A stretch of 64,000 nucleotides of DNA, taken from positions 32,198 through 96,197 of the forward strand of contig CAXXNZ010000024.1 in assembly GCA_963676075.2 (NCBI GenBank), read 5' to 3'. Each line of letters begins with the position of its first letter. The first letter of the stretch is position 1. The notes under the pieces were generated by a model. That model did no database searches, was not told the DNA's origin, and saw only the letters and a list, made by a program, of their open reading frames with translations. Shown here piece by piece: positions 16,540 through 39,401 of this stretch. A program made the position numbers and the translations under genes. This DNA is from Devosiaceae bacterium. GTDB lineage: Bacteria > Pseudomonadota > Alphaproteobacteria > Rhizobiales > Devosiaceae.

Positions 16540-18051
16540 TCAGGCCTTCAGCCGGATCACCTGATACGAGTAGGCCGGCAGCTCGAGGCTGACGGTTCCG
16601 CCCTCGACCGAGGCGCCCTGGCCGTCGCACGGGGCAACTTCTTCAGGCTTTTCCGGTGAGTTGACCGCTTCGAGATCGGGATGGGTCATCACCTTGTGTT
16701 CGATGATGCGCGCCGCGTCAAAGCCCTGCAGCGCGACGTCGAGCACGATGGCCTCGCTCGGATGGCGGTTGACGATGAACAGCGTCAACGTGCCGTCTTC
16801 CGCATTGTGCACCGCCGAGGCGTCGACATAGGGCACATTGTCGCCATGCTCGCAATCATAGCCCGGGCTGTTAACGTTGAGACGCAGAGCCGTGCCCCGG
16901 CCATAAATCGAGGCGTAGTAATAGGGGTAGTAGATGGTCTGCTTCCACGCCGGACCGCCCTTGACGGTCATGATCGGCGCGATGACGTTCACCAGCTGGG
17001 CGATGGCGGCGATCTTGACCACATCCGAACGCCGGATGAAGGTGTTGAGCGCCAGCCCGACCATCAGCACGTCTTCGAAGTTGTAGATGTCCTCAAGCAG
17101 ACCCGGCGCATGCGGCCAGCCGTCATTGCCCTCGAGGATCTTCCTGTCCTGCTCGTTCGAGTGGTACCACACGTTCCATTCGTCGAACGAGATGTAGACG
17201 TTCTTGTTGGAGCGCTTCTTGGCCTTCACATAATCGATCGTGCTGGCGACCGTGCCGATATAGCGATCCAGTTTCTCGTTCAATGCCAGGAAGTTGGCCG
17301 TGTTCTTCTCCGGATTGCGGAAGTACATGTGCAGTGAGATGTAATCGACGTTCTCGTAGGACTGGTCCAGCACCGTCGCTTCCCAGTCCGGATAGCTCGG
17401 CATGTCGGCATGCGAAGACCCGCACACCACAAGTTCGAGGTTCCTGTCGAAGGCCCTGACCGCCTTGGCGGTCTCGTTGGCCAGATGGCCATATTCGGCG
17501 GCGGACTTGTGACCGACCTGCCAGGGACCGTCCATCTCGTTGCCCAGCGCCCAGAGCTTGACGTTCCACGGGTCCTTGCGGCCGTTCTTCTTCCTGAGAT
17601 CCGACCAGTACGACCCGCCGGGATGATTGACGTATTCGATGAAGCTGCGCGCCTCGTCGAGCCCGCGTGAGCCAAGGTTCAACGCCAGCATCATCTCGGT
17701 GCCGACGCTGTCGGCCCAGTCGGCGAACTCGTGGATGCCGACCTCGTTGGATTCCGAGGTGTGCCAGGCCAGATCGAGCCGGGTCGGACGCTGGTCCTTG
17801 GGACCAACCCCGTCTTCCCAGTTGTAGGCGGAAACGAAATTGCCGCCCGGATAACGCACGATCGGCACATTGAGCGCCTTGACCATGTCGATCACGTCGC
17901 CGCGCATGCCATTGGCATCGGCGGTTGGATGGCCGGGCTCGTAGATGCCGGTATAGATCGCCCGCCCCAGGTGCTCGAGAAAAGCACCGTAGAGCCTCTT
18001 GTCGATCTCGGCGATGGTGAAATCCTTATGCGCCGTGATGGTCGCGCGCAT
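16540..18051 (-). CDS. abfA: alpha-L-arabinofuranosidase, GH51
   Basis: 503-aa ORF of typical GH51 length with family motifs (VRYPGGNFVS, WALGNEMDGPWQ, ISFDEWNVW). Confidence 0.9.
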   Translation of the reverse strand: MRATITAHKDFTIAEIDKRLYGAFLEHLGRAIYTGIYEPGHPTADANGMRGDVIDMVKALNVPIVRYPGGNFVSAYNWEDGVGPKDQRPTRLDLAWHTSESNEVGIHEFADWADSVGTEMMLALNLGSRGLDEARSFIEYVNHPGGSYWSDLRKKNGRKDPWNVKLWALGNEMDGPWQVGHKSAAEYGHLANETAKAVRAFDRNLELVVCGSSHADMPSYPDWEATVLDQSYENVDYISLHMYFRNPEKNTANFLALNEKLDRYIGTVASTIDYVKAKKRSNKNVYISFDEWNVWYHSNEQDRKILEGNDGWPHAPGLLEDIYNFEDVLMVGLALNTFIRRSDVVKIAAIAQLVNVIAPIMTVKGGPAWKQTIYYPYYYASIYGRGTALRLNVNSPGYDCEHGDNVPYVDASAVHNAEDGTLTLFIVNRHPSEAIVLDVALQGFDAARIIEHKVMTHPDLEAVNSPEKPEEVAPCDGQGASVEGGTVSLELPAYSYQVIRLKA

Positions 18052-18104
18052 GGCTCCCTCCCCTAAAAAGCAATATTATTGGTCTGTACCTGTTCCTCGG
18101 ATAC

Positions 18105-18133
18105 ATATGAGCGCGACAAACCCCACCCGTCAA
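18105..18133 (-). promoter_or_regulatory. sigma-70-like promoter for abfA (also at 53705-53733)
   Basis: The minus strand reads TTGACG (18133-18128), a 17-nt spacer, then TCATAT (18110-18105). This resembles the alphaproteobacterial CTTGAC-N17-CTATAT consensus. The 11-bp palindrome CAATA-N-TATTG at 18071-18081 lies between it and the RBS. Confidence 0.35.
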
Positions 18134-18148
18134 GACGCAATCAAACCC

Positions 18149-19102
18149 TCATCGCTGCTGGTACAACCGCAAAACAATGTCCTGGTCGTAGTTCCCAAAT
18201 CCTCGGCCGAAGATGTTGATGCCGCCCGGGTGCTTGGCGTCTTCATGCACGCCGATTCTCAGACGGATGGATTGGTGGTCGTTCAGGTTGAGGTCGGCGA
18301 GGGTGACATCGGAGATGCGAACGCCGTCGACATAGGAGCCGTTCTGGCCGATGCGCCAGGTTTTCAGCTTGCCGTATTGCGAGCCTTTCAGCTTCCACCA
18401 GTCGGGCGTGTAAACCCCGCGCTTGTCGCCGAAATCGCCTGGCGAGGTCCAGGTGCCGACATCGACGCCATTGACGCCGAGCGCAATGTCCGAAGGCCAG
18501 TCGGCGCTGGTGCCCGGCACTTCCGAACTCAATTCGAGACTAAACTCGATGGCGCTCAGCGTGTCGACCGAATGCCGGGCCGTGTTGGGGAACTGGTACT
18601 CGACAAAGCCGCGCGTGAACCACAACAGCCCGGCCTTCATGCGATCCGGATCGAGGAAGGCGTCGGGAACATCGAGCAGCCCGACAATGCCGTCCGGCGT
18701 GCAAAGCCCGCACGGTGCCGCCACTTCGAAACTCGAAAACAGTCCGATCGGCATCGCCACCTCGATGCCGTCGTTGCGCGTACCCTCGAGATCGTCGCGG
18801 AAAGCGACGAGGATTTCGTCATAGGTTGAATGGCAGATCTTCTGATTGCCCTTGCGCGCCTTCTGCAGCTCGGTGCGGATGAGACCAGCCTTTTCGAGCA
18901 GCGCGGCATTGGACGACGCGGTCGATTGCGGCAAGTCGAGCCGCGCCGCTATGTCGTTGATATTGAGTGGTCCTTCGGCATGAAGCAGCTGCAGCATGGC
19001 AATACGAACCGGCGACGCGAGCCCCTTGAGGACATCATTGTCTTCTTCCGGGTCAACCAAAAGAAAATTGCGTGCCAAACCGCCACACCAACCCCGATAC
19101 AC
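18149..19102 (-). CDS. ArsR-family (winged HTH) transcriptional regulator with a large C-terminal domain
   Basis: HTH region LKGLASPVRIAMLQLLHAEGPLNINDIAARLDLPQSTASSNAALLEKAGLI. The start is uncertain: GTG 19102 or TTG 19078, which would give MARNFLLVDPEE. Confidence 0.75.
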   Translation of the reverse strand: MYRGWCGGLARNFLLVDPEEDNDVLKGLASPVRIAMLQLLHAEGPLNINDIAARLDLPQSTASSNAALLEKAGLIRTELQKARKGNQKICHSTYDEILVAFRDDLEGTRNDGIEVAMPIGLFSSFEVAAPCGLCTPDGIVGLLDVPDAFLDPDRMKAGLLWFTRGFVEYQFPNTARHSVDTLSAIEFSLELSSEVPGTSADWPSDIALGVNGVDVGTWTSPGDFGDKRGVYTPDWWKLKGSQYGKLKTWRIGQNGSYVDGVRISDVTLADLNLNDHQSIRLRIGVHEDAKHPGGINIFGRGFGNYDQDIVLRLYQQR

Positions 19103-19454: not shown

Positions 19455-19847
19455 TCAGCCGAGGGTCAGGAAGGTGGCGAGAAGATCGGTACGGGTCAAC
19501 ACGCCAACCAACTCGCCATTGCGCACCACCGGATAGGCGCGGAAAGGCTTGTTAATGAAGGCTTCGGCGGCGGTGACGAAATCGGTCTCGGCATCGAGCG
19601 TTTCAACGTCGGTGGTCATGTAGTCCTTGGCCGAACCGCGCCATTGCCGATAATAGCCGGCGTTCAGGGCCGAGCGGAAACAGTCCTTTTGCGTCAGCAC
19701 GCCGACGATGGAGCCGGTGTCGTCAAGAACGGGCGCGATCTGGCTCCTCGCCTTGACCAAAGCCGCGACGGCGTCGCGGATCGGCATGTCGGGGCCGAGA
19801 CGCACGATGTCCTTCTGCATGACCGAGTCGATGCGTTCTTCAGTCAT
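19455..19847 (-). CDS. CBS domain-containing protein
   Basis: 130-aa ORF with two CBS-like repeats (VMQKDIVRLGPDMPIRDAVAAL..., DYMTTDVETLDAETDFVTAAEAF...). Its start overlaps the nqrM-like stop by 8 nt. Confidence 0.8.
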   Translation of the reverse strand: MTEERIDSVMQKDIVRLGPDMPIRDAVAALVKARSQIAPVLDDTGSIVGVLTQKDCFRSALNAGYYRQWRGSAKDYMTTDVETLDAETDFVTAAEAFINKPFRAYPVVRNGELVGVLTRTDLLATFLTLG

Positions 19848-20010
19848 GAGTGTGGGCCTCCTGACGCCGTGGACAGATCTCGCACTGGCCGCCGCCGACG
19901 CAGTCGAGGCCGCCGCATGAGGTCTGCGGCGGCTTGCCGGTCAGCATGAGACCTGCAGCCAGCCCGGTTGCGGCAAGAGCGACGATCGCGATGGCCAAAA
20001 GTGCTTCCAT
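19840..20010 (-). CDS. nqrM: NqrM-like (Na+)-NQR maturation protein, 56 aa (below the ORF-track cutoff)
   Basis: My translation is MEALLAIAIVALAATGLAAGLMLTGKPPQTSCGGLDCVGGGQCEICPRRQEAHTHD. It has one TM helix followed by a SCGGL...C...C..C cysteine cluster, as in NqrM/DUF539. The start lies 9 nt after the apbE stop, preceded by TAGGA. Confidence 0.6.
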   Translation of the reverse strand: MEALLAIAIVALAATGLAAGLMLTGKPPQTSCGGLDCVGGGQCEICPRRQEAHTHD

Positions 20011-20019
20011 GAGTTGATC

Positions 20020-21009
20020 CTACGCCAGAAATGTATCGAAAGCACCGGTGGACATGCGCTTGAGGCCCTGAGCGTTTTTGAGGACGAACAGGGCGCTGAC
20101 GCCGTGCCGGCGCGCCAGGTCAACGCCTTTTGCCGAACCGGCCGCGAACAGCGCCGTGGCCCAGCCGTCGGCCGACATCGTCTCGGCGGCGATGACCGAG
20201 ACCGACAGAAGACTGGAGTTGGCCGGCTCGAGCGTTGCCGGGTCGATGATGTGGCTATAGCGCCTGTTGCCGACATCGTAGCCATTGGCACGGCTGCCGG
20301 AGGTGGCGACGGCCATGTTGCCGAGATTGAGCACCTCGACGGCGCCGTTGACGCCGGGGCGCGGATCCTCGATGGCAACATGCCAGGACCTGCCGGATGG
20401 ATGCATGCCTGAGGCGCGCAACTCGCCGCCGAGATCGATGAGGAAATCCTCGTGTCCGGCGGAGCGGACGATGTCGGCCATGCGATCCAGGGCATAGCCC
20501 TTAGCAATACCGCAGAGATCGAGCGTCAGCCTATCATTGGCCTTGCTAAGGGCATCGGGTTCCAGCCCGATATGGCGCCAGTCGGTCGCGTCGCCGCCAT
20601 CGATCGGCCCGAATCCCCAGCGCGAGACCAACGGTCCGACGGTCGGATCGAACGCGCCGCGGCTCAAACCGGCGAGGGCAAGGGCGGCTTCGGTGACGCG
20701 GACCAGTTCTGCCGGCATCTTCAGAGTACCGGACGGCGCCCGGTTGAACGTGCTGACATCGGAATCGGTGCGCCAGGGCGACATCTGAAGATCGACGCGC
20801 GCCAGCATGTCCTCGATCGGCCGGCGCAGAGTTTCGAGATCGACGCTGTCCGGCGTGGCAATGCTCCATTCGGTCGCGAACGCCCGGCCCTCAATGAACC
20901 TAAGCGACGGAGCACCGAATGCAATGCCGGGCAGGCCGAAGGCCAAGGCCGAGGCGCCTCCAAGGGCGAGAAATCTGCGTCGGTCGATCCTGGGGGTCGG
21001 AATGCTCAT
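20020..21009 (-). CDS. apbE: FAD:protein FMN transferase (ApbE family) with a twin-arginine signal
   Basis: 329-aa ORF. N-terminus MSIPTPRIDRRRFLALGGASALAFG. ApbE-typical body (MSPWRTDSDVSTFN, DLCGIAKGYALD). Confidence 0.85.
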   Translation of the reverse strand: MSIPTPRIDRRRFLALGGASALAFGLPGIAFGAPSLRFIEGRAFATEWSIATPDSVDLETLRRPIEDMLARVDLQMSPWRTDSDVSTFNRAPSGTLKMPAELVRVTEAALALAGLSRGAFDPTVGPLVSRWGFGPIDGGDATDWRHIGLEPDALSKANDRLTLDLCGIAKGYALDRMADIVRSAGHEDFLIDLGGELRASGMHPSGRSWHVAIEDPRPGVNGAVEVLNLGNMAVATSGSRANGYDVGNRRYSHIIDPATLEPANSSLLSVSVIAAETMSADGWATALFAAGSAKGVDLARRHGVSALFVLKNAQGLKRMSTGAFDTFLA

Positions 21010-21012
21010 GGG

Positions 21013-22239
21013 TCAGATTCCAAAATCGTCGTTGAAGATAGACTGCCGCTCGACGCCGAGGCGGTCGAGCATAGCGAAGACGGCCGAGATCATCACCGGC
21101 GGACCGCACAGATAATATTCGCAGTCCTCCGGCGCCGGATGGTTGCTCATGGCGTTGCGGACAACCTCGTGGATGAAGCCGGTCGCGCCAATCCAGCGGT
21201 CGCCGGGCGCGGGCTCCGACAGGGCCGGAATCCAGGTGAAATTGTCGTTTTCGGCAGCGATGGCGTCGAATTCCTCGCGGTAGAACAGGTCGGCGGCCGA
21301 GCGCGCACCGTAATAAAAGGTCATCTTGCGCTTGGTCTTGAGCCCGATCTGCTCATGCACCATGGCCCGCATCGGCGCCATGCCGACACCACCGCCGATG
21401 AACACCATCTCGCGGTCGGTCGGCTGGATCTGGAAATCGCCATAGGGGCCGGAGGCCTCGATGGTATCGCCGGGCTTCAGCGCGAACAGGTGCGAAGAGA
21501 CGACGCCAGGCGTGATGTCTTCCTCGTGGCCGGCAGGCGGCACGGCGAGGCGGATATTGAACACCAGCTTGCCATTGGCGACGTCCTCGGGACGACAGGC
21601 GATCGAATAGGCGCGGGTCACGGGTTTTGGCGATTCGGCATGCATCTGGCGCCAGCCGGCGATATTCCAGATCTCCTCGAACTCGTGCGGCATGTTGAGC
21701 GCACCGAGATCGAGCGTGTAGGCCGGGGCCGTCAACTGCATGAAATTGCCGGCGGTGAAGGAGATGTCGTGTCCTTTTGGCACATCGAGCACCAGTTCGC
21801 GGATCAGCGGCGCCAGCATGCGATTGGAGGCGACGGTGCACTCGAAACCTTCGGCGACGAGAATTTCGGTCGGCACTTCGACCGAGACCGGCCCGCGCAG
21901 CTGGCATTGGCAGGCAAGGCGCTTGTTGGCCCGGCGCTCGGCGGCCGACAGCACGCCCTTCTCGTTGGCCAGCGGTTCGCCACCGCCCTCGCCGGTAACC
22001 GTCACCCGACACAGCCCGCAGGTGCCGGAGCCACCGCAAGCGGCGGGAATGCCGACGCCGGCGTTGTGCAAGACGTTGAGCAGGCGGTCGCCGCGCGCCG
22101 CCGTAATGATCTTGCCTTCGTTGACGGTGACCGTCACCGCCTCCTGGGGAACAAGACCGCGTTTGGCGAACACCAGCCCGATCGCCATGATGACGATCAG
22201 CCCGATGATGACGGAACTGCCAATGCCGATTTCGATCAT
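21013..22239 (-). CDS. nqrF: NADH:quinone reductase subunit F (TM helix, 2Fe-2S, FAD/NADH domains)
   Basis: 408 aa. Cysteine ligands CGGSGTCGLCRV...LACQC. FAD motif RAYSIA. NAD motif FIGGGVGMAP. The C-terminus is NDDFG. Confidence 0.9.
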   Translation of the reverse strand: MIEIGIGSSVIIGLIVIMAIGLVFAKRGLVPQEAVTVTVNEGKIITAARGDRLLNVLHNAGVGIPAACGGSGTCGLCRVTVTGEGGGEPLANEKGVLSAAERRANKRLACQCQLRGPVSVEVPTEILVAEGFECTVASNRMLAPLIRELVLDVPKGHDISFTAGNFMQLTAPAYTLDLGALNMPHEFEEIWNIAGWRQMHAESPKPVTRAYSIACRPEDVANGKLVFNIRLAVPPAGHEEDITPGVVSSHLFALKPGDTIEASGPYGDFQIQPTDREMVFIGGGVGMAPMRAMVHEQIGLKTKRKMTFYYGARSAADLFYREEFDAIAAENDNFTWIPALSEPAPGDRWIGATGFIHEVVRNAMSNHPAPEDCEYYLCGPPVMISAVFAMLDRLGVERQSIFNDDFGI

Positions 22240-22850
22240 ACCGTCACCATCAGCGCGAATGCGGAGAAGCCGAGCGACATCATGCCGGCAAGGATGAAGG
22301 TGATGCCGAGCCCCCGGAGACCACCCGGCAGGTCGGCATACGCCATGCGCTGGCGGATGCCGGCGAGGATGACGACGGCAACAGCAAAGCCGAAGCCGCC
22401 GCTCAAGCCGTAAACAAGCGATTCAAGCACGTCGTAATGACGATCGACGGCGAGCAGCGAGCCGGCGAGAATGGCGCAATGAACCGTCAGAAGCGGCAGG
22501 AAGACGCCGAAGGAGGCGTATATCGCCGGGAAAAACCGGTCCATCACCATTTCGATGAGCTGAATCGAGGCCGCGATGACGCCGATGAAGGCAATGAGCT
22601 TCAAATAGCTGAGATCGAGTTCGGGATAGCCAGCCCAGGCCCAGGCGCCGGGTTTCAGCAAGAACTGGTAGATCGCCTGGTTGAGCGCGGCCGTGACGCC
22701 GAGCGAGGCGGTGACCGCGATGCCAAGACCAATGGAGGTCGCAACATTGCGCGACAGGGCCATGAAGGTGCACAGCCCGAGGAACAGGGTCAGCGGCATG
22801 TTCTCGACAAAGACCGCTCTGAGGATAAAGCCGAGGGGATCGTTCATCAT
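22236..22850 (-). CDS. nqrE: NADH:quinone reductase subunit E
   Basis: 204-aa membrane ORF that aligns throughout with NqrE as I recall it (FVENMPLTLFLGLCTF, FLPLLTVHCAI, GLRGLGITFI). Confidence 0.85.
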   Translation of the reverse strand: MMNDPLGFILRAVFVENMPLTLFLGLCTFMALSRNVATSIGLGIAVTASLGVTAALNQAIYQFLLKPGAWAWAGYPELDLSYLKLIAFIGVIAASIQLIEMVMDRFFPAIYASFGVFLPLLTVHCAILAGSLLAVDRHYDVLESLVYGLSGGFGFAVAVVILAGIRQRMAYADLPGGLRGLGITFILAGMMSLGFSAFALMVTV

Positions 22851-23512
22851 GCCCGGCTCTCCTTCTTTTCAGGAGCCTGATGCTCGGGCGGCTCGATCTG
22901 GTAGGTGTTGAGCGAGCGCACCAGCCACACCAGCCCGCCAAGCAGGAAGAAGGCGCTCGGGGCCAGGAGCATCAGGGCCATCGGCGTGTACCAGCCGCCC
23001 TGGTCGATCGTCGGCAGGACCTGAAGACCGAGCAGACTGCCCTTGCCGAACAGTTCGCGCACGCCGCCGATGATGATCAGCACGAGCGAGTAGCCGAGGC
23101 CGTTGCCGAGGGCATCAAGCATCGAGGGCAGTGGCGGATTGGAACGGGAGAAGGATTCGGTGCGCCCCAACACGATGCAGTTGGTGGTGATCAGCGAGAC
23201 ATAGACCGACAGGCGCTTGGAAATATCGAAGAAATAGGCCTGCAGGAACTGGTCGATGACGATCACCAGCGAGGCGACGATGATGATCTGGACGATCAGG
23301 CGGATCGAATCCGGAATGTGGTGGCGAATGAGGCTGACAAAGAACGCCGACAGAACCAGCACAACGGTCAGCGAGGCGGCCATGGTGATGGCGGTATCGA
23401 GCGAGGTCGTCACCGCCAGCGCCGAGCACAACCCGAGAATCTGCAGCAGAACCGGGTTCTGCTTGATCAGCGGGTCGGACAATGTGCTCCAGAACAATCC
23501 CTTGCCGGCCAT
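22847..23512 (-). CDS. nqrD: NADH:quinone reductase subunit D
   Basis: 221-aa membrane ORF with NqrD-like blocks (LQILGLCSALAVTT, SLITTNCIVLGR, LMLLAPSAFF). Confidence 0.85.
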   Translation of the reverse strand: MAGKGLFWSTLSDPLIKQNPVLLQILGLCSALAVTTSLDTAITMAASLTVVLVLSAFFVSLIRHHIPDSIRLIVQIIIVASLVIVIDQFLQAYFFDISKRLSVYVSLITTNCIVLGRTESFSRSNPPLPSMLDALGNGLGYSLVLIIIGGVRELFGKGSLLGLQVLPTIDQGGWYTPMALMLLAPSAFFLLGGLVWLVRSLNTYQIEPPEHQAPEKKESRA

Positions 23513-23515
23513 GGC

Positions 23516-24316
23516 CTAGAATTCTCCTCGTTGCACCGCATCGAAGAACTTGCCGTAGCCATTCGGCCCCATCCAGAAGCGGATGATCCGCGACATGGCA
23601 TTGGACGTCTTGGTGGCGCCGGTGATGCCGTCGACTTCATAATCGTTGCTGGCCGGGCCGTGCTGCACGGCGAACCGCAACTCGCCATTGGCGTCGCGCA
23701 CCTTCACGCCGGCGAATTGCGCCTGCCAGGCCGGCTCCTCGATACGGCCGCCGAGACCTGGCGTTTCGACCTGGTCGGTAATCGCGAGGCCGGCGATGGT
23801 GTTCATGTCGCCATGCATGGCGATCATGCCCTGGATCGGACCCTGATAGCCGGCGCCGCTGAAGGGCAGGATGGCCAGGGATACCTCCTCGCCACTCCTC
23901 AGGATGTAGATCTGGACGAAGTCGGGCCGCGCACCAAGACCGGCAGTATCCTCCGCCGGCGTCAACTGCGTGTAATTGGTCGGGTCCTGCAGGGCGGCCT
24001 CGAGCGTTGCCGGGGTCACGTCCTTGGCCGCCCAACCGGTTTCGAGGTTGACGACCACCGCCGACAGCGCATCCCCGCCGGCGTCGGCGATCAGATCCTT
24101 CATGCCCGGAATGGCCGAGATCAGCGCTTCAAGCCGGACCTGTTGTTCGTGGGCGCGATTGGCCGACTGGATGGGCCTGAGGACAACGGTTGCGCCGTTG
24201 ACGGCCAGGGCACAGACCGCCGCGACCAGGAAGGCCACGACGATCGTCTTCGTGCGGCTTTCGTTGGGAAGCGCCAGAAAGCCCTTCCACCACGAAAAGG
24301 GATTGAGATCAGCCAA
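23516..24316 (-). CDS. nqrC: NADH:quinone reductase subunit C (FMN-binding)
   Basis: 266 aa with one N-terminal TM helix. It retains the flavinylation motif DGITGATKTS. Confidence 0.8.
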   Translation of the reverse strand: MADLNPFSWWKGFLALPNESRTKTIVVAFLVAAVCALAVNGATVVLRPIQSANRAHEQQVRLEALISAIPGMKDLIADAGGDALSAVVVNLETGWAAKDVTPATLEAALQDPTNYTQLTPAEDTAGLGARPDFVQIYILRSGEEVSLAILPFSGAGYQGPIQGMIAMHGDMNTIAGLAITDQVETPGLGGRIEEPAWQAQFAGVKVRDANGELRFAVQHGPASNDYEVDGITGATKTSNAMSRIIRFWMGPNGYGKFFDAVQRGEF

Positions 24317-25085
24317 GGTTCCGTCTCCTCAGGGCAAGCCACGAGGCAATTGCGATTTCGTCGAGAATGGGTGCGCACAGATTGGCGAGCAACGCCGCCG
24401 CGATGGACAGCTGGATGGCGGCCGCTCCCTGCCAGTACAGGGTGAACAGAACGATCAATCCGGCAAACAGCGCCCCGTAGAGCCAACGCCCGAGCTGGGT
24501 CGCGGCGCTGGCGACGGGATCGCAGACCAGAAGCACCAGCACCACGGCGACCGCGGGGTAGATGTCGGAAAAATCGACGCCGCCGAGAGAAGCGATGCCG
24601 AACACGACAAGGGCGCCGAGAATGATACGGGCGGAAAACACACCCGTCAGCCAGCCGACGAGGGCGGCGGGAATGGCGGCCCAGCCGATTTGAGCGATGA
24701 GGTCGGGCCAGGGTGCCTGCGGAAACCCGAACCCGACAAAGGACAGCATGACGGTCGCCGGGTTGAGGATGTTGCGGCCCCAGCCGCCGAAGACGAGTTC
24801 GGCCATGACCACGCCGAAACTCAACCCGAGCAACACCTGAACGACGTTGAGCTCGCGCGGCACGAGGATGGCAATGGCGAGCGCGGTCACGGCGCCGGCG
24901 AACGAGGGCGGCTGGGCGCGCGCCAGCATGAACACCACGTGCCAGATGCCGGCGAAGACCAGAAAGAAAATCAGTCGCCCGACGGCCGCAATGCCTTCGA
25001 CCTGCAGCCACATCACCGTCAGGGGCAGCAAGGAGGCCAGGACCATTAGCGCGACGGTTTCGCGATCCCACAATCCGCGTATCAA
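24309..25085 (-). CDS. nqrB: NqrB/RnfD-family membrane subunit, unusually short (258 aa), with no S/T-G-A-T flavinylation motif
   Basis: Conserved blocks FGGWGRNILNPATV and CDPVASAATQLGRW match NqrB/RnfD. The loop between them that normally carries the FMN-threonine is absent. The ORF overlaps nqrA (ATGA) and nqrC (8 nt), so it looks intact. Confidence 0.7.
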   Translation of the reverse strand: MIRGLWDRETVALMVLASLLPLTVMWLQVEGIAAVGRLIFFLVFAGIWHVVFMLARAQPPSFAGAVTALAIAILVPRELNVVQVLLGLSFGVVMAELVFGGWGRNILNPATVMLSFVGFGFPQAPWPDLIAQIGWAAIPAALVGWLTGVFSARIILGALVVFGIASLGGVDFSDIYPAVAVVLVLLVCDPVASAATQLGRWLYGALFAGLIVLFTLYWQGAAAIQLSIAAALLANLCAPILDEIAIASWLALRRRNLG

Positions 25086-26359
25086 CCCACTTCCTCCTCT
25101 GCGATCCGTTCGAGCAGTGTCGTCAGCACGTCGGAAAAACGCGGTTCGGCGCCGGTGACATAGTCGACCAGCGCCATGTCCTCGGCCAGAAAAGACAGCG
25201 CGCCGAGCTTGACCGCGGTTTCAGCGTCTCCTGCCGACAGGGCGCGCAACAGCGCCGCGGTGGGCAGGCTGCCGCCCATGGCCTGATCGAGCGCCGCAGT
25301 CGGAATGATCGGCAGCGGGCGCGAGGCGCCCTGCAGTGCCGACAGGAACCAATGGCGCCGGTGCTGGCCGGATTCTCCGCTCAAAATGGTCGCCTGGCGC
25401 TGTCGCGGGCCGAGCCAGCGAGCCTCGTGGCCATCGAGCGCAGACCCCGAAAGGATGGAGTGACGTCCCGGCTTGACCAGACCGTGGCTCAACCCGCGCA
25501 GGTCGGCGCCAGGCTGGCAATGGACATAACGTTGTTCGCGCAGGGCAGAACCGGTGACCGAGATCAGCCTGGTCTCGGGAACCAGACCGGTCTCGAGAAA
25601 TGCACCGATGCCGGCGACGTCCTCGGCATGCACGTCCCAGACCGGCTTGCCAGTGTCGGCGGGATAGTTGCGATGGATCTGGAAGCCGGGCAGGCCCCAG
25701 GGATGCTGCCCGCCGCTCTTGATGACCCGGACGCGTTCGCCCAGGCCCGAGGTATCGAAAAGGGTCTTGCCGCGCGGCTGGCAGACAAAGATCGGTCCAT
25801 CTCCGAGCATCGTGAGGGCGCGAAGACCGCGCGCGAACTCTTCCTCGTGACCGGACAGGGCCAGGCGTGGTTCGGGCGCACCGGGGCGGGTGTCGATCGC
25901 CATGACGAAAATCGCCGTCGGCACCTCGGCCGGCACCGGCTCCCCACCGAACGGCCGCGAGCGGAAAGCGCTCCACAGCCCGGATTCCTGCAATGACGTG
26001 CGCATCGCCGCCGGCGCGTCGAGGCTGTTGGCGGCACTGGTGTCGAAACTGTGACGGCCCGCTTCTGATTCGGCATAGAAAACGATGCGCGACAACCGGC
26101 GACCGGCGTTGAGGCCGATCTTGGCGACCCGGGCCGCCATCGGCGCCGTCACGACGATTTCAGGGTAGTGACGCGAACGCAGAACCGGAGCGCCCTGCGC
26201 CACGCGGTCGCCCTCCGCAACCAGAGGCTCGACGCGAAAATCGTCGTCCCAGGCTGCAGTTAGCCCTGCTTCCTCGGTGATTTGCACCGGCACGGCGCGT
26301 GACGGAGCGGGAAGATCCGCCACGTGAACGCTCAAGCCGCCTCTGATTGGCCACTGCAC
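25082..26359 (-). CDS. nqrA: NADH:quinone reductase subunit A
   Basis: NqrA-like blocks (ESGLWSAFRSRPFG, AIFVMAIDTRP, LGALSFLAEDMALVDYV). The track ORF extends to 26440. The likely start is GTG 26359 (MQWPIRGGLSVHV, matching the usual IxIKKGLDLPI N-terminus), preceded by GGAGA. Confidence 0.8.
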   Translation of the reverse strand: MQWPIRGGLSVHVADLPAPSRAVPVQITEEAGLTAAWDDDFRVEPLVAEGDRVAQGAPVLRSRHYPEIVVTAPMAARVAKIGLNAGRRLSRIVFYAESEAGRHSFDTSAANSLDAPAAMRTSLQESGLWSAFRSRPFGGEPVPAEVPTAIFVMAIDTRPGAPEPRLALSGHEEEFARGLRALTMLGDGPIFVCQPRGKTLFDTSGLGERVRVIKSGGQHPWGLPGFQIHRNYPADTGKPVWDVHAEDVAGIGAFLETGLVPETRLISVTGSALREQRYVHCQPGADLRGLSHGLVKPGRHSILSGSALDGHEARWLGPRQRQATILSGESGQHRRHWFLSALQGASRPLPIIPTAALDQAMGGSLPTAALLRALSAGDAETAVKLGALSFLAEDMALVDYVTGAEPRFSDVLTTLLERIAEEEVG

Positions 26360-26490
26360 CCGTCTACATCTCCGTTTGCCCCCGCAACACGGATCCTGAA
26401 GCGGTCCTCGTATTGCGAAACGTCGACTAATTAAGTACACTTACCGTAGCAACGACACGACTGTTCAGCAAGCGCGACTAGGGGGCTAGC

Positions 26491-27684
26491 ATGCTTAAAC
26501 GAATGATCAGCCGGAGTGGGCTCATCGCTGCGGCAACGATTATGTCCTTGTGGGCGCTTGCGGCGGCGTTCGCCCAGGCAGCTCCCGAGACACCCGCCGC
26601 TGGCGAAGGAGCACCTGCTGGCGAGGCGTCGGCTTACGTCTTCCCGGAAAGCGGACCCTTCAACCCCGAAAAGATCGGCATCCCGCAAGCGGCGATGATC
26701 GACGCCTGGGTGCGGTCAGCGCATGCGGACAGGTCGGCCGAAGCCTTTTCGCACTGGGATGCTGAAGGCGAGATTCCTCCGGCCTGTTCGGTCTGCCACT
26801 CTGGAGCGGGCTTCCGTTCGCTTCTGGGTCTTGACGGCAGTCCCAAGGGTCTGCCCGAACACCCGATCCCGGTCGGCGGCGTCGTCGACTGCGAGACTTG
26901 CCACAATCCGAAGCTGGCCGAAATCAAGGAAATCACCTTCCCGTCTGGGGTTGTTCATCCCGTCGTCGGCGTGGAGGCCGCCTGCATGAGCTGCCATCAG
27001 GGTCGCGAATCGGGTGTGGATGTCGCCGAGGCCACCGTGGATATGGACGACGACACGCCGAATGCGGAACTCCGCTTCATCAATCCGCACTACCGGTTGG
27101 CGGCCGCCACCAATCTCGGCGGCTACGGCAAGGTCGGCTACCAGTATCCGGGCAAGACCTATTCTGGCCGGTTCATGCATGCCAAGCCGATCGGCACCTG
27201 CGTTTCCTGTCACGATCCGCACGCACTGGAGGTCAAGACAGAGACCTGCGCCACCTGTCACTTCACCGACGATCCGGACATGATCCGCATCTCGCACGTG
27301 AGCTTCGACGGCAGCGGCGACACCAACAAGGGCATCAAGTCCGACATCCAGGCGAACGCCGACACGCTGATGGATACCATCCGCGCCTACGCCGCGAACG
27401 TCGTCGGAACGCCGATGATCTATGACGGCAACCGCTATCCGTACTTCTTCGCCGATGCGAATGGCGACGGCCAGGTGGATCAGACCGACGAGGGCAAGAC
27501 AATCGCCTACAACAGCTGGACCCCACGCCTGCTCAAGGCTGCGTTCAACTGGAAGGTCATTGCCGCAGATCCCGGCATCCACGCCCACAACCCTTACTAT
27601 GCCCTCGAACTGATCTACGATTCAGTCGAAGACCTGGGCAATGCCGATGGCGTAGACGTCGATATGGGCACGATGCTGAGGTAA
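26491..27684 (+). CDS. secreted pentahaem c-type cytochrome
   Basis: 397 aa. Signal peptide ...SLWALAAAFAQA. Five CXXCH motifs: CSVCH, CETCH, CMSCH, CVSCH, CATCH. AGGGGG lies before the ATG. Confidence 0.75.
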   Translation: MLKRMISRSGLIAAATIMSLWALAAAFAQAAPETPAAGEGAPAGEASAYVFPESGPFNPEKIGIPQAAMIDAWVRSAHADRSAEAFSHWDAEGEIPPACSVCHSGAGFRSLLGLDGSPKGLPEHPIPVGGVVDCETCHNPKLAEIKEITFPSGVVHPVVGVEAACMSCHQGRESGVDVAEATVDMDDDTPNAELRFINPHYRLAAATNLGGYGKVGYQYPGKTYSGRFMHAKPIGTCVSCHDPHALEVKTETCATCHFTDDPDMIRISHVSFDGSGDTNKGIKSDIQANADTLMDTIRAYAANVVGTPMIYDGNRYPYFFADANGDGQVDQTDEGKTIAYNSWTPRLLKAAFNWKVIAADPGIHAHNPYYALELIYDSVEDLGNADGVDVDMGTMLR

Positions 27685-27720: not shown

Positions 27721-27750
27721 GAGCGGGGGCATTGCTCCCGCTCTTTTTTT
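27721..27750 (+). terminator. rho-independent terminator of the cytochrome gene
   Basis: GAGCGGG (27721-27727) pairs with CCCGCTC (27737-27743), followed by TTTTTTT (27744-27750). Confidence 0.7.
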
Positions 27751-28248: not shown

Positions 28249-29103
28249 TTAGCTGAGAACCGGGAAACGGCCGGTGTCGAGGATCTCGCACGCCCGTGCG
28301 ACGCCTGCGGCCGTCGGCGGCTCGGTATCGGCGAGGGTATAGGGCAGCCCGAGAGCTTCCCACTTGTGCTCGCCCATCTTGTGGAAGGGCAGAACCTCGA
28401 GGCGCTCGATTGTGTCGAGACGGTTGGTGATGTCACGCACCGCCTTGATGTTGTCCTCGCCGTCGGTAAGGCCGGGAACCAGCACGAAGCGGATCCACAT
28501 TTTCTTGCCCATGGCGGAAAGACGCTCGGCGAAATCGATGGTCGGCTGCAGGTCGACGCCGGTGGTCTTTTTGTAGACATCAGGCAGGCCGGACTTGATG
28601 TCGAGCAACACCAGATCGGTCTCAGCCAGCAGTTCGTCCGACGCCTTGGCACCGAGATAGCCGGAGGTATCAAGAGCGGTGTGCAGACCTGCCTTCTTGC
28701 ACTCACGCAAAAGGCCGAGGGTGAATTCGGGCTGCACCAGCGGTTCGCCACCCGAAATGGTCACGCCGCCGCCGGTCGCCTTCATGAAATTCTTGTAGGA
28801 CGTGATATCCGAAATCAGACCGGCGCCGTCGGTCAGCTTGCCGCCGCGCTTCATCTTCATGCAGTCGGGGTTGTGGCAATAGGCGCAAGTCAGCGGACAA
28901 CCGCTGAGAAACACCACGTAGCGGACGCCGGGACCGTCAACCGCCCCGGCCGTCTCGACGGAGTGCACATAGCCAGAGAACGCAGCTGCCGCCGCGTTCC
29001 GCCCCCCATCGGGGAGCGGAACGTCGGCGGATGGGTTCGGCATGGGGCTTCCGAAACCGAGATCGAAAGCCGCCTCACCGCGAAGTGCTTCAGGCTCTTT
29101 CAT
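28249..29103 (-). CDS. pflA: pyruvate formate-lyase activating enzyme (radical SAM)
   Basis: Radical-SAM cluster CPLTCAYC. Glycyl-radical-activase blocks ([27 protein letters not shown]). The alternative start ATG 29043 would avoid the overlap with pflB. Confidence 0.9.
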
Positions 29104-31396
29104 GGAAGGTCCTGGAGATGACGTCTTTCTGCTGGTCCTTGGTCAGCTTGATGAAGTTGACCGCGTAACCGGAGACCCGGATCGTCAGCTGCGGATAGTT
29201 TTCCGGATGATCCATGGCATCAAGCAGCGTTTCCTTGTTGAGGACGTTGACGTTGATGTGCTGGCCACCGGCGGTGTTGTCATTGGCGGCAAAGTAGCCG
29301 TCAAGCAGCCCCGCAAGGTTCTTGGCCCTGTCGGCTTCTGTCTTGCCGAGCGCGCCCGGCACCACCGAGAAGGTGTAGGAGATGCCATCCTGGGCATTGG
29401 CATAGTCGATCTTGGCAACCGAAGCCATCGAGGCCAGGGCACCCTTGTGATCGCGGCCGTGCATCGGGTTGGCGCCCGGAGCGAAGGGCTCGCCGGCCTT
29501 GCGGCCATCCGGGGTCGACCCGGTCTTCTTGCCGTAAACGACATTGGACGTGATGGTCAGCACCGACTGGGTGTGGGTGGCGTTGCGATAGGCCGGCGTG
29601 CGGCGGATCTTGTCCATGAAGCTGTCAACCAGCCCGGCTGCGATCATGTCGACGCGGTCGTCGTTGTTGCCGTAGCGCGGCAGATCTTCTTCCGGCATTT
29701 CCTGAACGAAGTCGGTGATAAGACCACGCTCGTCACGCACCACCCGTACCTTGCCGTACTTGATCGCTGCCAGCGAGTCGGCGGCCACCGAGAGACCGGC
29801 GATGCCGCAGGCCAGGGTCCGCATGACATCACGGTCGTGCAGGGCCATTTCCAGCCGCTCGTAGCTGTACTTGTCGTGCATGTAGTGGATGATGTTGAGG
29901 GCGTTGACATAGGTCTTGGCCAGCCAGTCGGTCATCACCGAGAAGCGGGACATCACTTCGTCATAGTCGAGATAGTCGCCGGTGATCGGCGCGGTGACCG
30001 GGCCGACCTGGGCGCCGGAGATCTCGTCCTTGCCGCCGTTCAGCGCATAGAGCATCGCCTTGGCGAGGTTGGCGCGGGCGCCGAAGAACTGCATCTGCTT
30101 GCCGATGCGCATCGGAGATACGCAGCAGGCGATGCCGTAGTCGTCGCCCCAGTATGGACGCATGACTTCGTCGTTCTCGTACTGGATGGCGCAGGTCTCG
30201 ATCGAGATGTCGGCGCAGAAGGTCTTGAAGGCCTCGGGCAGACGGTCGGACCACAACACGGTGAGGTTCGGTTCGGGCGACGGGCCGAGATTGCGAAGGG
30301 TCTGCAGGAACCTGAAGCTCGACTTGGTGACAAGCGGACGACCGTCCGCGGCCATGCCACCGATCGCTTCGGTGACCCAGGTGGGGTCGCCGGAGAACAG
30401 CTCGTCATATTCGGGCGTCCTGAGGAAACGGACAAGGCGGAGCTTGATGACGAACTGGTCGATCAGGGCCTGGGCCTCGGCTTCGGTCAGCGTGCCTTCC
30501 TTGAAGTCGCGCTCGAAATAAACATCGAGGAAGGTCGAGACACGGCCGAGCGACATGGCGGCGCCGTTCTGTTCCTTGACCGCGCCGAGATAGCCGAAAT
30601 AGAGCGCCTGGACCGCTTCCTTCCCGGTCGTGGCCGGCTTGGAAATGTCGATGCCATAGAGCATGGCCATTTCCTTGAGGTCGGCAAGAGCGCGGAGCTG
30701 TTCGCTCATTTCCTCGCGCAGCCGGATCGTGTCTTCGTCGAGGATGTGGTTGTCGAGGTCGGCCTTCTCGGCTTTCTTGGCCTTGATCAGCGCATCGACG
30801 CCGTAAAGCGCGACACGGCGATAGTCGCCAATGATGCGGCCGCGGCCATAAGCATCGGGCAGGCCGGTGACGATACCCGATTTGCGGGCAGCGCGGATCT
30901 CGGGGGTGTAGGCGTCAAACACGCCCTGGTTGTGCGACTTGCGATAACGGGTGAAGACCTTTGCCGTCTCGGGATCGATCTCCCAGCCATAGGCCTTGAG
31001 ACCGGCGATCACCATGTTGACGCCACCGGTCGGCATGATCGCCCGCTTCAGCGGCTTGTCGGTCTGAAGACCGACGATGGTTTCAAGGCTCTGGTCGATA
31101 TAGCCGGCCTCGTGCGACAGCAGGTCAGAGGGGATCGAGGTGTCGGCATCGAGGACGCCGCCGGCATCGCGTTCTTTCTTGAGCAGCTCCTTGACCGTGT
31201 CCCACAGCATGGTGGTTTCCTGAACCGGACCGGCGAGGAAACTGCCATCGCTTTCGTAAGGCGTGAAATTGCGGACAATGAAGTCGCGCACATCGATCAT
31301 ATCCTGCCACGGGCCTCTGGCAAAACCGCGCCAGGCATCCGTTCCCGTCGGCGCCGTCTCGTTCTGGGCATTGTCGATTTGCGTGATGTGCAGCAT
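29090..31396 (-). CDS. pflB: formate C-acetyltransferase (pyruvate formate-lyase)
   Basis: 768 aa. Glycyl-radical motif RVSGYAV near the C-terminus, catalytic CC in IACCVSPM, and PflB-typical N-terminal blocks. Confidence 0.95.
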
Positions 31397-36519: not shown

Positions 36520-37011
36520 GCACCATAGCATCCGGCCCGATGCGTGCCCTGACCATCAGGCTGCAGGACGAACATTTTGCCGTCGAGGCCGAAAACGTTC
36601 GCGAAATCCTCGATCTTGTGCCGATCACCGAGGTGCCCAACGCCTCGCCCTTCGTCAGCGGACTGATCAATGTGCGCGGCCGCGTCGTGCCGTTGGCCGA
36701 TCTCAGGGTGATGTTCGACATGGACCGGCCCAGAGCCGGACGAGGACACCAGGATCGTCGTCATCGAAACCAGTATCGAAGGCGAACCGACCGTTGTCGG
36801 CATCCTCGCCGACAAGGTTCATGACGTCACCGATATCGAGGCCACGGATATCCGCGAGGCGCCGCGCGTCGGCATGCGCTGGCGCCCTGAATTCGTGAAG
36901 GGAATTGGACGCTGGAACGGCGATTTCATCGTCATACCCGACCTCGGACGCATTTTTGAATCACGGGGCGCCTCCGGCGCGACCATGGAAGACGAAAGGG
37001 CTTCTCGATGA
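36516..37011 (+). pseudogene. cheW: CheW coupling protein with one +1 frameshift
   Basis: Frame 0 gives ...GLINVRGRVVPLADLRVMFDMDRP, then junk. Removing one base at CCC/A 36729-36732 gives EPDEDTRIVVIETSIEGEPTVVGILADKVHDV..., ending at TGA 37009-37011, which overlaps the mcp start. 496 nt minus 1 = 165 codons. Confidence 0.75.
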
Positions 37012-39116: not shown

Positions 39117-39401
39117 GCCAGAACCGCTCGGTGCAGTGTCGGTACGTGATTGTGGGAGATCGGGTGCGGCGAGCATCAGGCTCGCGGCCCCCGGTTACTC
39201 CACCGGCACCTCCACCCGTTCGCGGCATCCATCCTGGGAACGGGTCACCACACCAGACTCGGGGAACCCAATCCGTTCCCTTGCAACGAAATCACCGCTC
39301 CGATCGGCGGTAACTACCAACACAAGACGATTCACGACGATTTCACGAGGACGCTCGGTGCGTCCGGTCATCCGGCACACCGACTGTGAAAGGACCTAAA
39401 C

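Follow-up and report, generated by a model that had tools for sequence, protein, structure and literature searches.

A widespread NQR-type operon with a short NqrB lacking the flavin-attachment loop, adjacent to a c-type cytochrome gene

Gene content of the locus

The stretch of DNA analysed here (the window, 64,000 nucleotides (nt) long) covers positions 32,198 to 96,197 of contig CAXXNZ010000024.1 in the genome assembly of a Devosiaceae bacterium (GCA_963676075.2). It carries an operon for an enzyme of the NQR type, the Na+-translocating complex that oxidises reduced nicotinamide adenine dinucleotide (NADH) at the expense of quinone. NQR is a textbook example of a Na+ pump powered by redox reactions and is also a target for antibiotics. 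The NqrB subunit encoded in the window is short and lacks the loop to which flavin mononucleotide (FMN) is covalently attached, and a gene for a secreted pentahaem cytochrome c lies divergently beside nqrA. Operons with such a short NqrB represent a distinct, conserved and widespread subtype of NQR that is apparently undescribed.

The operon consists of nine co-directional open reading frames (ORFs) on the minus strand at 19455-26359, an arrangement already recognised in a preliminary description of this DNA and borne out by the ORF coordinates and by Pfam and NCBIfam matches, which confirmed the identities of the genes. Neighbouring genes either overlap (4 or 8 nt) or leave gaps of 3-9 nt. 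The first gene, nqrA (25082-26359, 425 amino acids (aa)), encodes a protein with the Pfam domains NQRA_N, NQRA_2nd and NQRA_SLBB. Its mechanical ORF extends to 26440, and alignment with the upstream regions of relatives places the start at a GTG codon at 26359 preceded by a conserved GGAG. Two genes with TTG starts follow: nqrB (24309-25085, 258 aa), whose product matches PF03116 only, and nqrC (23516-24316, 266 aa), which encodes the periplasmic FMN subunit with a Pfam FMN_bind domain. Next come nqrD (22847-23512, 221 aa), nqrE (22236-22850, 204 aa) and nqrF (21013-22239, 408 aa), the last encoding the NADH-oxidising subunit that contains flavin adenine dinucleotide (FAD) and a 2Fe-2S cluster. 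The operon ends with apbE (20020-21009, 329 aa; Pfam ApbE, 3.6e-72) for an FAD:protein FMN transferase, an nqrM-like gene (19840-20010) for a small membrane protein of 56 aa, and a gene (19455-19847) for a stand-alone protein of 130 aa with two CBS domains (total E-value 1.4e-26). Long plus-strand ORFs antisense to the operon, for example 20452-22413 (653 aa) and 22880-24445 (521 aa), are artefacts of the kind common in DNA with 62-66% G+C.

The subunits differ in how closely they follow known NQR proteins. NqrD (NF006777, 299 bits against a cut-off of 235), NqrE (TIGR01940, 254 against 248) and NqrF (TIGR01941, 430 against 295) pass the NCBIfam equivalog cut-offs. NqrA (230 against 505 bits), NqrB (78 against 414) and NqrC (195 against 255) fall below them. 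In other words, the input side of the enzyme is canonical, and the divergence is concentrated in the subunits around NqrB.

Related loci were collected from several sources. A scan of a genome collection with a single protein yielded five genomic loci and a scan with the clade alignment yielded 80 metagenomic loci; nine contigs with named or distant NqrB homologues and two contigs reached from the cytochrome were added. Conservation in each subunit was assessed at a threshold of at least 95% among 40-63 non-identical homologues from these loci. By this measure the flavinylation motif of NqrC, D229-G-I-T-G-A-T235, is conserved in the form D-G-I-x-G-A-T (63 homologues), so the site appears intact and covalent FMN is predicted for NqrC. 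The four cysteines that hold the intramembrane 2Fe-2S cluster, as defined previously (PMC9325719), are conserved as C29 and C112 of NqrD and C27 and C125 of NqrE (51-52 homologues). NqrE P119 is likewise conserved and corresponds to V. cholerae NqrE-P114 (an offset of 5, as in C125 and C120). NqrF conserves its 2Fe-2S cysteines (C68, C74, C77 and C110), the R-A-Y-S motif at 209-212 and the NADH motif GGGVGMAP. Two studies place Na+ translocation in RnfA/E and NqrD/E, with reduction of the intramembrane 2Fe-2S cluster as the driving event, and hold that RnfD/NqrB is not the ion path (PMC11889175, PMC12901251). On that view, the pump module would be fully retained here.

NqrA contains one conserved cysteine only (C193; 57 homologues), hence no Fe-S motif. 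It is predicted to be a cofactor-less cytoplasmic subunit that diverges from canonical NqrA. An extra cofactor in NqrA was considered and was ruled out by the same lack of further conserved cysteines.

The maturation genes are also a regular part of these operons. Among 35 informative loci, apbE is present in 33. The nqrM-like gene was detected by tblastn in 22 of the 35, and ORFs of 53-58 aa occupy the same position in distant loci. Its product scores below the Pfam NqrM cut-off (17.2 bits against 22); it has one N-terminal transmembrane segment and a cysteine cluster of which C32, C43 and C46 are conserved. Thus, the statement in the preliminary description that the NqrC motif, ApbE and an NqrM-like protein are all present holds. 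That description had listed the CBS gene without recognising its significance: a CBS-pair gene ends the operon in 34 of the 35 loci and occurs as well in the distant loci L008, L009, L010, L096 and L097 and in the fusion-type operon L093 (see below), while it is absent in L095. The CBS-pair gene is therefore a conserved hallmark of the short-NqrB subtype and not a passenger. To our knowledge, canonical nqr operons have no CBS-pair gene.

The preliminary description also overlooked the cytochrome gene, which lies just outside the region it covered. The gene (26491-27684, plus strand) diverges from nqrA and encodes a secreted pentahaem cytochrome c of 397 aa, with an N-terminal hydrophobic signal peptide ending in AQA and five CxxCH motifs. 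All five motifs and five additional histidines (H78, H200, H230, H244 and H366) are invariant in 53 cytochrome homologues. All five haems probably have bis-His ligation, and the five invariant extra histidines point to an electron carrier and not to an enzyme with a catalytic haem. The protein falls outside curated families, with only weak Pfam matches to c7, c3 and c552 models, and a search of the PDB gave no significant sequence match. Its structural model is of moderate confidence, and the best Foldseek matches (NrfA) have E-values of ~2. An enzyme of the NrfA type was considered and rejected, because the c552 similarity is sub-threshold, the Foldseek E-values are ~2 or worse, all haem motifs are CxxCH and five extra histidines are invariant.

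Two further observations concern this cytochrome. Residues ~318-335 form an invariant acidic loop, Y-F-F-A-D-A-N-G-D-G-x-x-D (D322, N324, D326 and D330), which resembles a calcium-binding D-x-N-x-D-G loop. Paralogues of ~680 aa (L091 10001-12043; P0396, P0405, P0418, P0422 and others) are 40-49% identical over ~80% of the query. They do not lie beside nqr; they occur in clusters with multihaem cytochromes and NHL-repeat proteins, and these clusters resemble extracellular-electron-transfer loci.

The short NqrB and its family

Comparison of the short NqrB with V. cholerae NqrB (PDB 7xk3_B) gave two matching blocks only: residues 42-~125 match V. cholerae residues 137-~220, and residues 183-248 match 340-403. 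The missing parts were located in a MAFFT alignment of short NqrB with canonical NqrB and RnfD representatives and V. cholerae fragments. All short forms lack ~50 residues at the N-terminus and start at the equivalent of the V-R-D motif (V. cholerae ~49), just before transmembrane helix (TMH) 1. The NqrB-specific insertion after TMH1 is missing in every short form, as it is in RnfD, and ~15 residues before TMH8 are gone as well. The FMN loop is represented by a clean gap of ~50 aa over V. cholerae ~223-270 in all short forms. The deleted segment includes D-G-Y-S-G-A-T236 and most of the membrane-interior loop (…DGYSGAT236…GNIPGS).

Further evidence comes from the motifs themselves. NqrB contains no [ST]-G-A-[ST] motif, the sole occurrence among the ten proteins of the locus being VDGITGATKT in NqrC. 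An alignment of 21 clade members contains no invariant Ser or Thr between the FGGWGRN and DPV blocks. The clean gap, the lack of a motif and the lack of an invariant Ser or Thr together indicate that the preliminary description was correct in reporting a missing FMN-attachment loop, and its report of a missing N-terminal extension agrees with the alignment. A conserved flavinylation threonine in a non-canonical motif, which it had named as grounds for abandoning the claim, was not found among these 21 proteins. The loss of the covalent FMN site from short NqrB is well supported. Two substitutes for the lost FMN were considered and rejected. An alternative flavinylation site elsewhere in the operon is ruled out because the only [ST]GA[ST] sits in NqrC. 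A b-haem in short NqrB is ruled out because there is no conserved pair of histidines, H49 being clade-specific.

The N-terminal stretch of canonical NqrB forms the ubiquinone and inhibitor pocket, binds korormicin and aurachin, and intertwines with the C-terminus of NqrA (PMC9325719). Both the korormicin/aurachin pocket and the NqrA-gripping part of this stretch are absent from short NqrB. G140-G141, a pair implicated in the binding of quinone and korormicin, reads A/S-G in the clade and is unconserved in the wider family. The residues proposed to line a Na+ path in NqrB are also affected: the D52 and E157 equivalents are never acidic in short forms, and the segment containing E273 is deleted.

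The riboflavin site presents a different picture, which the preliminary description had overlooked. The riboflavin ligands of NqrB are T162, N200, N203 and D346 (Kishikawa et al. PMC9325719; Hau et al. PMC10643135). Their equivalents in short NqrB are T67, N105, N108 and D189, and these are kept in 21-24 of 24 close homologues. The two asparagines are less well preserved further out: of 61 distant short forms, just 29 have the N200 equivalent and just 20 that of N203. The equivalents of D346 (as D or E) and of D397 are universal in short forms.

An AlphaFold2 model of short NqrB built from 85 sequences has a mean predicted local distance difference test score (pLDDT) of 93.5 and a predicted template modelling score of 0.91. 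In Foldseek this model best matches chains of V. cholerae NqrB and of RnfD, at query-normalised template modelling scores (TM-scores) of 0.63-0.77. The model indicates that the NqrB/RnfD core fold is retained in a compact form.

How widespread is the short form? A word-indexed search found 551 homologues. The best 120 of the 551 are 57-95% identical to the query and are either fragments or proteins of ~254-270 aa (almost all 254-263). Their sources include Rhodobacterales (Salipiger, Tropicimonas, Pseudoruegeria, Paracoccus, Celeribacter, Roseivivax and others) and Hyphomicrobiales (Oricola, Martelella, Nitratireductor and Breoghania). The closest genome match, at 96% identity, is a Devosiaceae metagenome-assembled genome (MAG). 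An exhaustive HMMER search against 1.8 billion cluster representatives revealed a wider set of proteins of 250-290 aa that match end to end at 30-40% identity, including members from Hoeflea phototrophica, Pelagibacterium, Thermohalobaculum and a Planctomycetota MAG. The short architecture is seen in ~90 clusters at 50% identity. The FGGxG and DPV blocks lie ~90-95 residues apart in short forms, compared with ~145-170 residues in most canonical ones, and in short forms of the wider set the interval contains no flavinylation motif. A neighbour-joining tree of NqrB/RnfD representatives places the long forms together, away from the short forms. This tree is star-like and too weak for a single origin of the short forms to be claimed.

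The HMMER search also found NqrA-NqrB fusions of ~690 aa, which likewise lack the flavinylation site. These fusions of NqrA with short NqrB (P0156, P0162, P0190 and P0198; L093 6319-8385) belong to a high-GC lineage. The fusion operon at L093 has the order nqrAB-C-D-E-F-CBS, without apbE and with no cytochrome nearby.

The NqrB score far under the equivalog cut-off is what would be expected if the short protein were an assembly artefact, the product of an in-frame deletion or a decaying pseudogene in an ordinary Na+-NQR operon. Several observations make such an origin practically inconceivable. Proteins of this length and architecture come from hundreds of independent genomes and metagenomes, among them the complete isolate genomes of Oricola, Hoeflea, Salipiger and Octadecabacter. 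The ratio of nonsynonymous to synonymous substitution rates (dN/dS) of nqrB against five relatives is 0.05-0.20, and the structural model is confident. Conservation in a clade, dN/dS and the model together rule out an artefact or pseudogene. The preliminary description was thus right to take the gene as genuine, and the clade of short-NqrB operons whose existence it had suggested as a check was recovered in the locus and homologue searches.

Cytochrome pairing and the proposed electron path

The association between the cytochrome and the operon was counted by tblastn with the window proteins in the 50 loci that have at least 700 bp upstream of nqrA. In 46 of them a pentahaem homologue was found, encoded on the strand opposite to nqrA at a distance of 84-283 bp. 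A c-type cytochrome gene of some kind, belonging to one of three unrelated types, lies beside nqrA in 49. Locus L009 has a triheme c3-type cytochrome of 116 aa in the same divergent position. Loci L078 (3377-3916) and L079 (7921-8463), which are the same sequence, have a monoheme cytochrome of the PccH family (PF22297, 2e-46) directly upstream of nqrA on the operon strand. More distant loci have a c3-type cytochrome of 144 aa (L096) or a multihaem cytochrome of 362 aa (L097) at the cytochrome position. The reverse check gave the same picture, as both of the two ~390-aa cytochrome homologues examined (from Octadecabacter and Jannaschia) adjoin a short-NqrB operon. The genes flanking the cytochrome-nqr pair vary between loci, indicating that the pair moves as a unit. 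The pentahaem cytochrome is thus subject to non-orthologous replacement at a fixed position, and the presence of unrelated c-type cytochromes in its place beside nqrA would be difficult to account for if cytochrome and operon were not functionally linked.

Another gene recurs at these loci. A Na+/H+ exchanger gene (PF00999) lies beside the cytochrome gene or the operon end in at least 16 related loci (for example L006 15663-16832, L008 6130-7317, L010 6456-7619, L094 10241-11398 and L097 194-1393), though not in the window. Its presence hints at a link to Na+ cycling.

Where would an enzyme of this composition send its electrons? The preferred reading, to which a probability of about 50% is given, is that the pump half of the enzyme is kept and that NADH electrons would pass via FMN(NqrC) to a periplasmic cytochrome instead of ubiquinone. 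The front half would be matured by ApbE and NqrM and would work as in Vibrio, including the presumed Na+-coupling site. Electrons would move from NADH to FAD and the 2Fe-2S cluster of NqrF, then to the membrane 2Fe-2S cluster of NqrD/E, and then to the covalent FMN of NqrC in the periplasm. The return path from FMN(NqrB) through riboflavin to ubiquinone would be disabled or altered, and the periplasmic FMN(NqrC) would exchange electrons with a dedicated c-type cytochrome, here the pentahaem protein. Such an enzyme would be an NADH:cytochrome c oxidoreductase, probably coupled to Na+, that feeds periplasmic acceptors. The two-subunit Nqr/Rnf-like complexes, compared below, offer a precedent, since one-way delivery of electrons to acceptors outside the cytosol was proposed for them and their NqrB-like domain has no flavinylated Thr (PMC8238504, PMC11334425). 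We infer the direction of electron flow, direct electron exchange between FMN(NqrC) and the cytochrome, and the retention of Na+ pumping; the observation of the short-NqrB operons itself is solid, and the function proposed for them is read from sequence and gene context. A broader proposal is more tentative and should be regarded as somewhat doubtful, namely that a quinone-bypassing, Na+-pumping NADH:cytochrome c oxidoreductase constitutes an unrecognised class of respiratory enzyme, widespread in marine Rhodobacterales and Hyphomicrobiales, in which the CBS-pair protein would serve as a regulator that senses nucleotides or ionic strength.

Several points weigh against transfer to a cytochrome. 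Gene adjacency is not electron transfer. The alphaproteobacterial locus L062 has only a helicase upstream of nqrA and no cytochrome nearby, and the fusion-type operon L093 also lacks a neighbouring cytochrome. (The giant ORFs upstream of nqrA in L062 and L093 were considered as substitutes and rejected, as they encode mutually unrelated proteins, a helicase and a Met-zincin, that are not redox proteins.) The 50 loci include many that are related to one another and a few duplicates, so that counts such as 49 of 50 overstate the number of independent observations. The cytochrome model has a pLDDT of 73 and no significant structural match, which leaves conservation as the source of the predicted haem ligation. 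The export of electrons without a return path dissipates the membrane potential unless ion pumping compensates. Finally, the riboflavin ligands (the T162, N200, N203 and D346 equivalents) are fully conserved in the clade and NqrA is retained, in some lineages fused to NqrB; both features suggest that the cytoplasmic face of NqrB is still active and would fit a retained return path.

The last two features favour a reading in which the enzyme is still an NADH:quinone oxidoreductase. In that case FMN(NqrC) would directly enter the riboflavin site of the compact NqrB or lie beside it, and quinone would be reduced by riboflavin at a new site; the cytochrome would serve as a side branch or as an alternative donor or acceptor, or would simply share the regulation of the operon. 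This reading is rather unlikely. An extracytosolic FMN that samples a non-covalent flavin site has been proposed for the two-subunit Nqr/Rnf-like complex from an AlphaFold-Multimer model (PMC11334425). The near-complete retention of T67, N105, N108 and D189 in close homologues, the universal D346 and D397 equivalents and the absence of an adjacent cytochrome in L062 and L093 would also fit. However, the ~50 N-terminal residues that form the known quinone pocket are absent (PMC9325719) and G140-G141 is unconserved. The decay of N200 and N203 in distant short forms indicates that riboflavin binding is not a constraint on the whole family. Furthermore, continued quinone reduction leaves the presence of a c-type cytochrome of three unrelated types beside nqrA unexplained. 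A different possibility is that the complex runs in reverse, with a reduced periplasmic cytochrome passing electrons to FMN(NqrC) and a Na+ gradient driving them uphill through NqrD/E and NqrF to NAD+. One lineage has a PccH-family cytochrome in place of the pentahaem protein, and this family is named after a Geobacter protein needed for electron uptake from cathodes. The family name is no evidence of function. The Na+/H+ exchanger encoded at some of the related loci could supply the Na+ gradient, and RNF complexes are reversible (PMC11889175). For NQR, by comparison, the two-electron oxidation of NADH at NqrF has been argued to make the reaction effectively one-way (PMC12901251), and NqrF is canonical here. 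Inward electron flow would also be costly, being directed against the membrane potential and uphill in redox potential, and the hosts are mainly heterotrophic marine Alphaproteobacteria. Reverse operation is therefore quite improbable.

The preliminary description had gone on to suggest a different cofactor complement and possibly a different electron path or coupling ion. The change of cofactors stands with the loss of the covalent FMN site. A different electron path finds indirect support in the lost pocket and the neighbouring cytochrome. Nothing argues for a different coupling ion, since NqrD/E, held to be the Na+ path (PMC11889175, PMC12901251), are canonical and a Na+/H+ exchanger is often adjacent in relatives.

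The short-NqrB enzyme shares features with several known systems and coincides with none of those compared. Its gene set and order are those of V. cholerae Na+-NQR: six subunit genes, nqrA to nqrF, with apbE and an nqrM-like gene behind them. NqrF, NqrD, NqrE and the NqrC flavinylation site are canonical, and within this clade NqrB keeps its fold, the residues that bind riboflavin and D397. The two enzymes differ in the length of NqrB (258 aa here, 415 in V. cholerae), and the short form has neither the Thr236/S-G-A-T loop, the N-terminal pocket and the NqrA-gripping stretch nor acidic equivalents of D52, E157 and E273. A further difference is the constant extra CBS-pair gene and the adjacent c-type cytochrome gene, both of which are reportedly absent from the V. 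cholerae nqr operon. With no covalent NqrB FMN site and no N-terminal quinone pocket, the enzyme is better not filed as Na+-NQR in the NADH:ubiquinone sense.

Nor is it an RNF complex, because it has NqrF in the place of the poly-ferredoxin RnfB, and NqrA, without an Fe-S motif, in the place of RnfC with its Fe-S clusters, FMN and NAD+ site. The NqrB subunit alone does resemble RnfD (PDB 9eri_D, 7zc6_D and 8rbq_D) in lacking the N-terminal extension and the insertion after TMH1, and the structural match is as good as that to NqrB (TM-scores of 0.75-0.77 query-normalised and 0.63-0.65 target-normalised). Unlike short NqrB, RnfD keeps an S-x-A-T-P flavinylation loop, and short NqrB scores better with NqrB models (6.6e-22) than with RnfD models (2.7e-13).

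A closer parallel in cofactor content is provided by the two-subunit Nqr/Rnf-like complexes (Méheust et al. 2021, Huang et al. 2024), which have an NqrB-like domain without the flavinylated Thr and for which one-way electron transfer from NAD(P)H to extracytosolic acceptors was proposed (PMC8238504, PMC11334425). Both systems combine a non-flavinylated NqrB/RnfD-like domain with a flavinylated NqrC/RnfG-like subunit. In contrast to the full NqrA-F set with a separate NqrF found here, mainly in Alphaproteobacteria, those complexes have only two subunits, fuse a NAD-binding domain (PF00175) to the C-terminus of the NqrB-like part and occur mainly in Actinobacteria and the candidate phyla radiation.

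Pairing with multihaem cytochromes is known from RNF, as in MmcA-Rnf of Methanosarcina acetivorans and the Desulfovibrio rnf operons with a decahaem cytochrome. These cytochromes presumably accept electrons at the external side of the membrane. The likeness lies in a member of the RNF/NQR superfamily being coupled genetically to a multihaem c-type cytochrome. Those systems are ferredoxin-linked through RnfB/RnfC and have a flavinylated RnfD, whereas the present one is NADH-linked through NqrF/NqrA and has a non-flavinylated NqrB, and their cytochromes are not evidently homologous to the pentahaem protein. A search of full-text literature with little coverage of subscription journals retrieved no account of a six-subunit NQR whose NqrB is non-flavinylated or that has a cytochrome partner.

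Whether Na+ crosses the membrane in NqrB or in NqrD/E, and what each flavin contributes, is still argued. An NQR without FMN(NqrB) and the quinone pocket but with intact NqrD/E, NqrC and NqrF is a natural dissection of the enzyme, and as a large and ecologically relevant family it bears on the debate over the Na+ pumping site. If Na+ pumping persists, it would give independent support to the NqrD/E pathway. If the periplasmic cytochrome is reduced, a new quinone-independent entry of NADH electrons into bacterial respiratory chains would be implied. Judging from source names, hundreds of marine alphaproteobacterial genomes currently list these operons under Na+-NQR or label their NqrB as RnfD. 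Reconstructions of metabolism may be wrong where they take NADH:ubiquinone activity of these operons for granted.

Regulation and neighbourhood

The divergent intergenic region between the cytochrome gene and nqrA (26360-26490) presumably contains the promoters of both. It has no match to the sigma-70 consensus. An FNR/Crp-type palindrome, TTGAT-N4-ATCAA with at most one mismatch, was found in 16 of 49 cytochrome-nqrA intergenic regions (e.g. L020 at ~8.6 kb, L072, L080 and L088), where a back-of-envelope estimate puts the chance expectation at well under one. This suggests oxygen- or nitric oxide-responsive control in many lineages. FNR-type regulation at the present locus was considered and rejected, as such a box is absent both from 26360-26490 and from the nearest relatives, L001-L005. 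Downstream of the cytochrome gene a terminator-like hairpin (27721-27743, plus strand), recognised by consensus match only, has a 10-bp stem with eight G-C pairs followed by a run of seven T. Its position suggests that the cytochrome gene is a monocistronic unit.

Beside the cytochrome gene, on the minus strand at 28249-31396, lie genes for a pyruvate formate-lyase (768 aa, with PFL-like and glycine-radical domains) and its activating enzyme. These genes point to a facultatively anaerobic, fermentative host. A conserved link between them and the operon was ruled out, because the adjacency occurs only in the window and in its closest relative, L001. The flanking regions at 16540-19102 and 37008-41609 encode a protein of 317 aa of the ArsR/MarR helix-turn-helix type, with a long C-terminal domain of no known family, and, further from the operon, two methyl-accepting chemotaxis proteins in tandem. 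An ORF of 503 aa in the same regions encodes what we take, by eye from the translation, to be an alpha-L-arabinofuranosidase-like protein.

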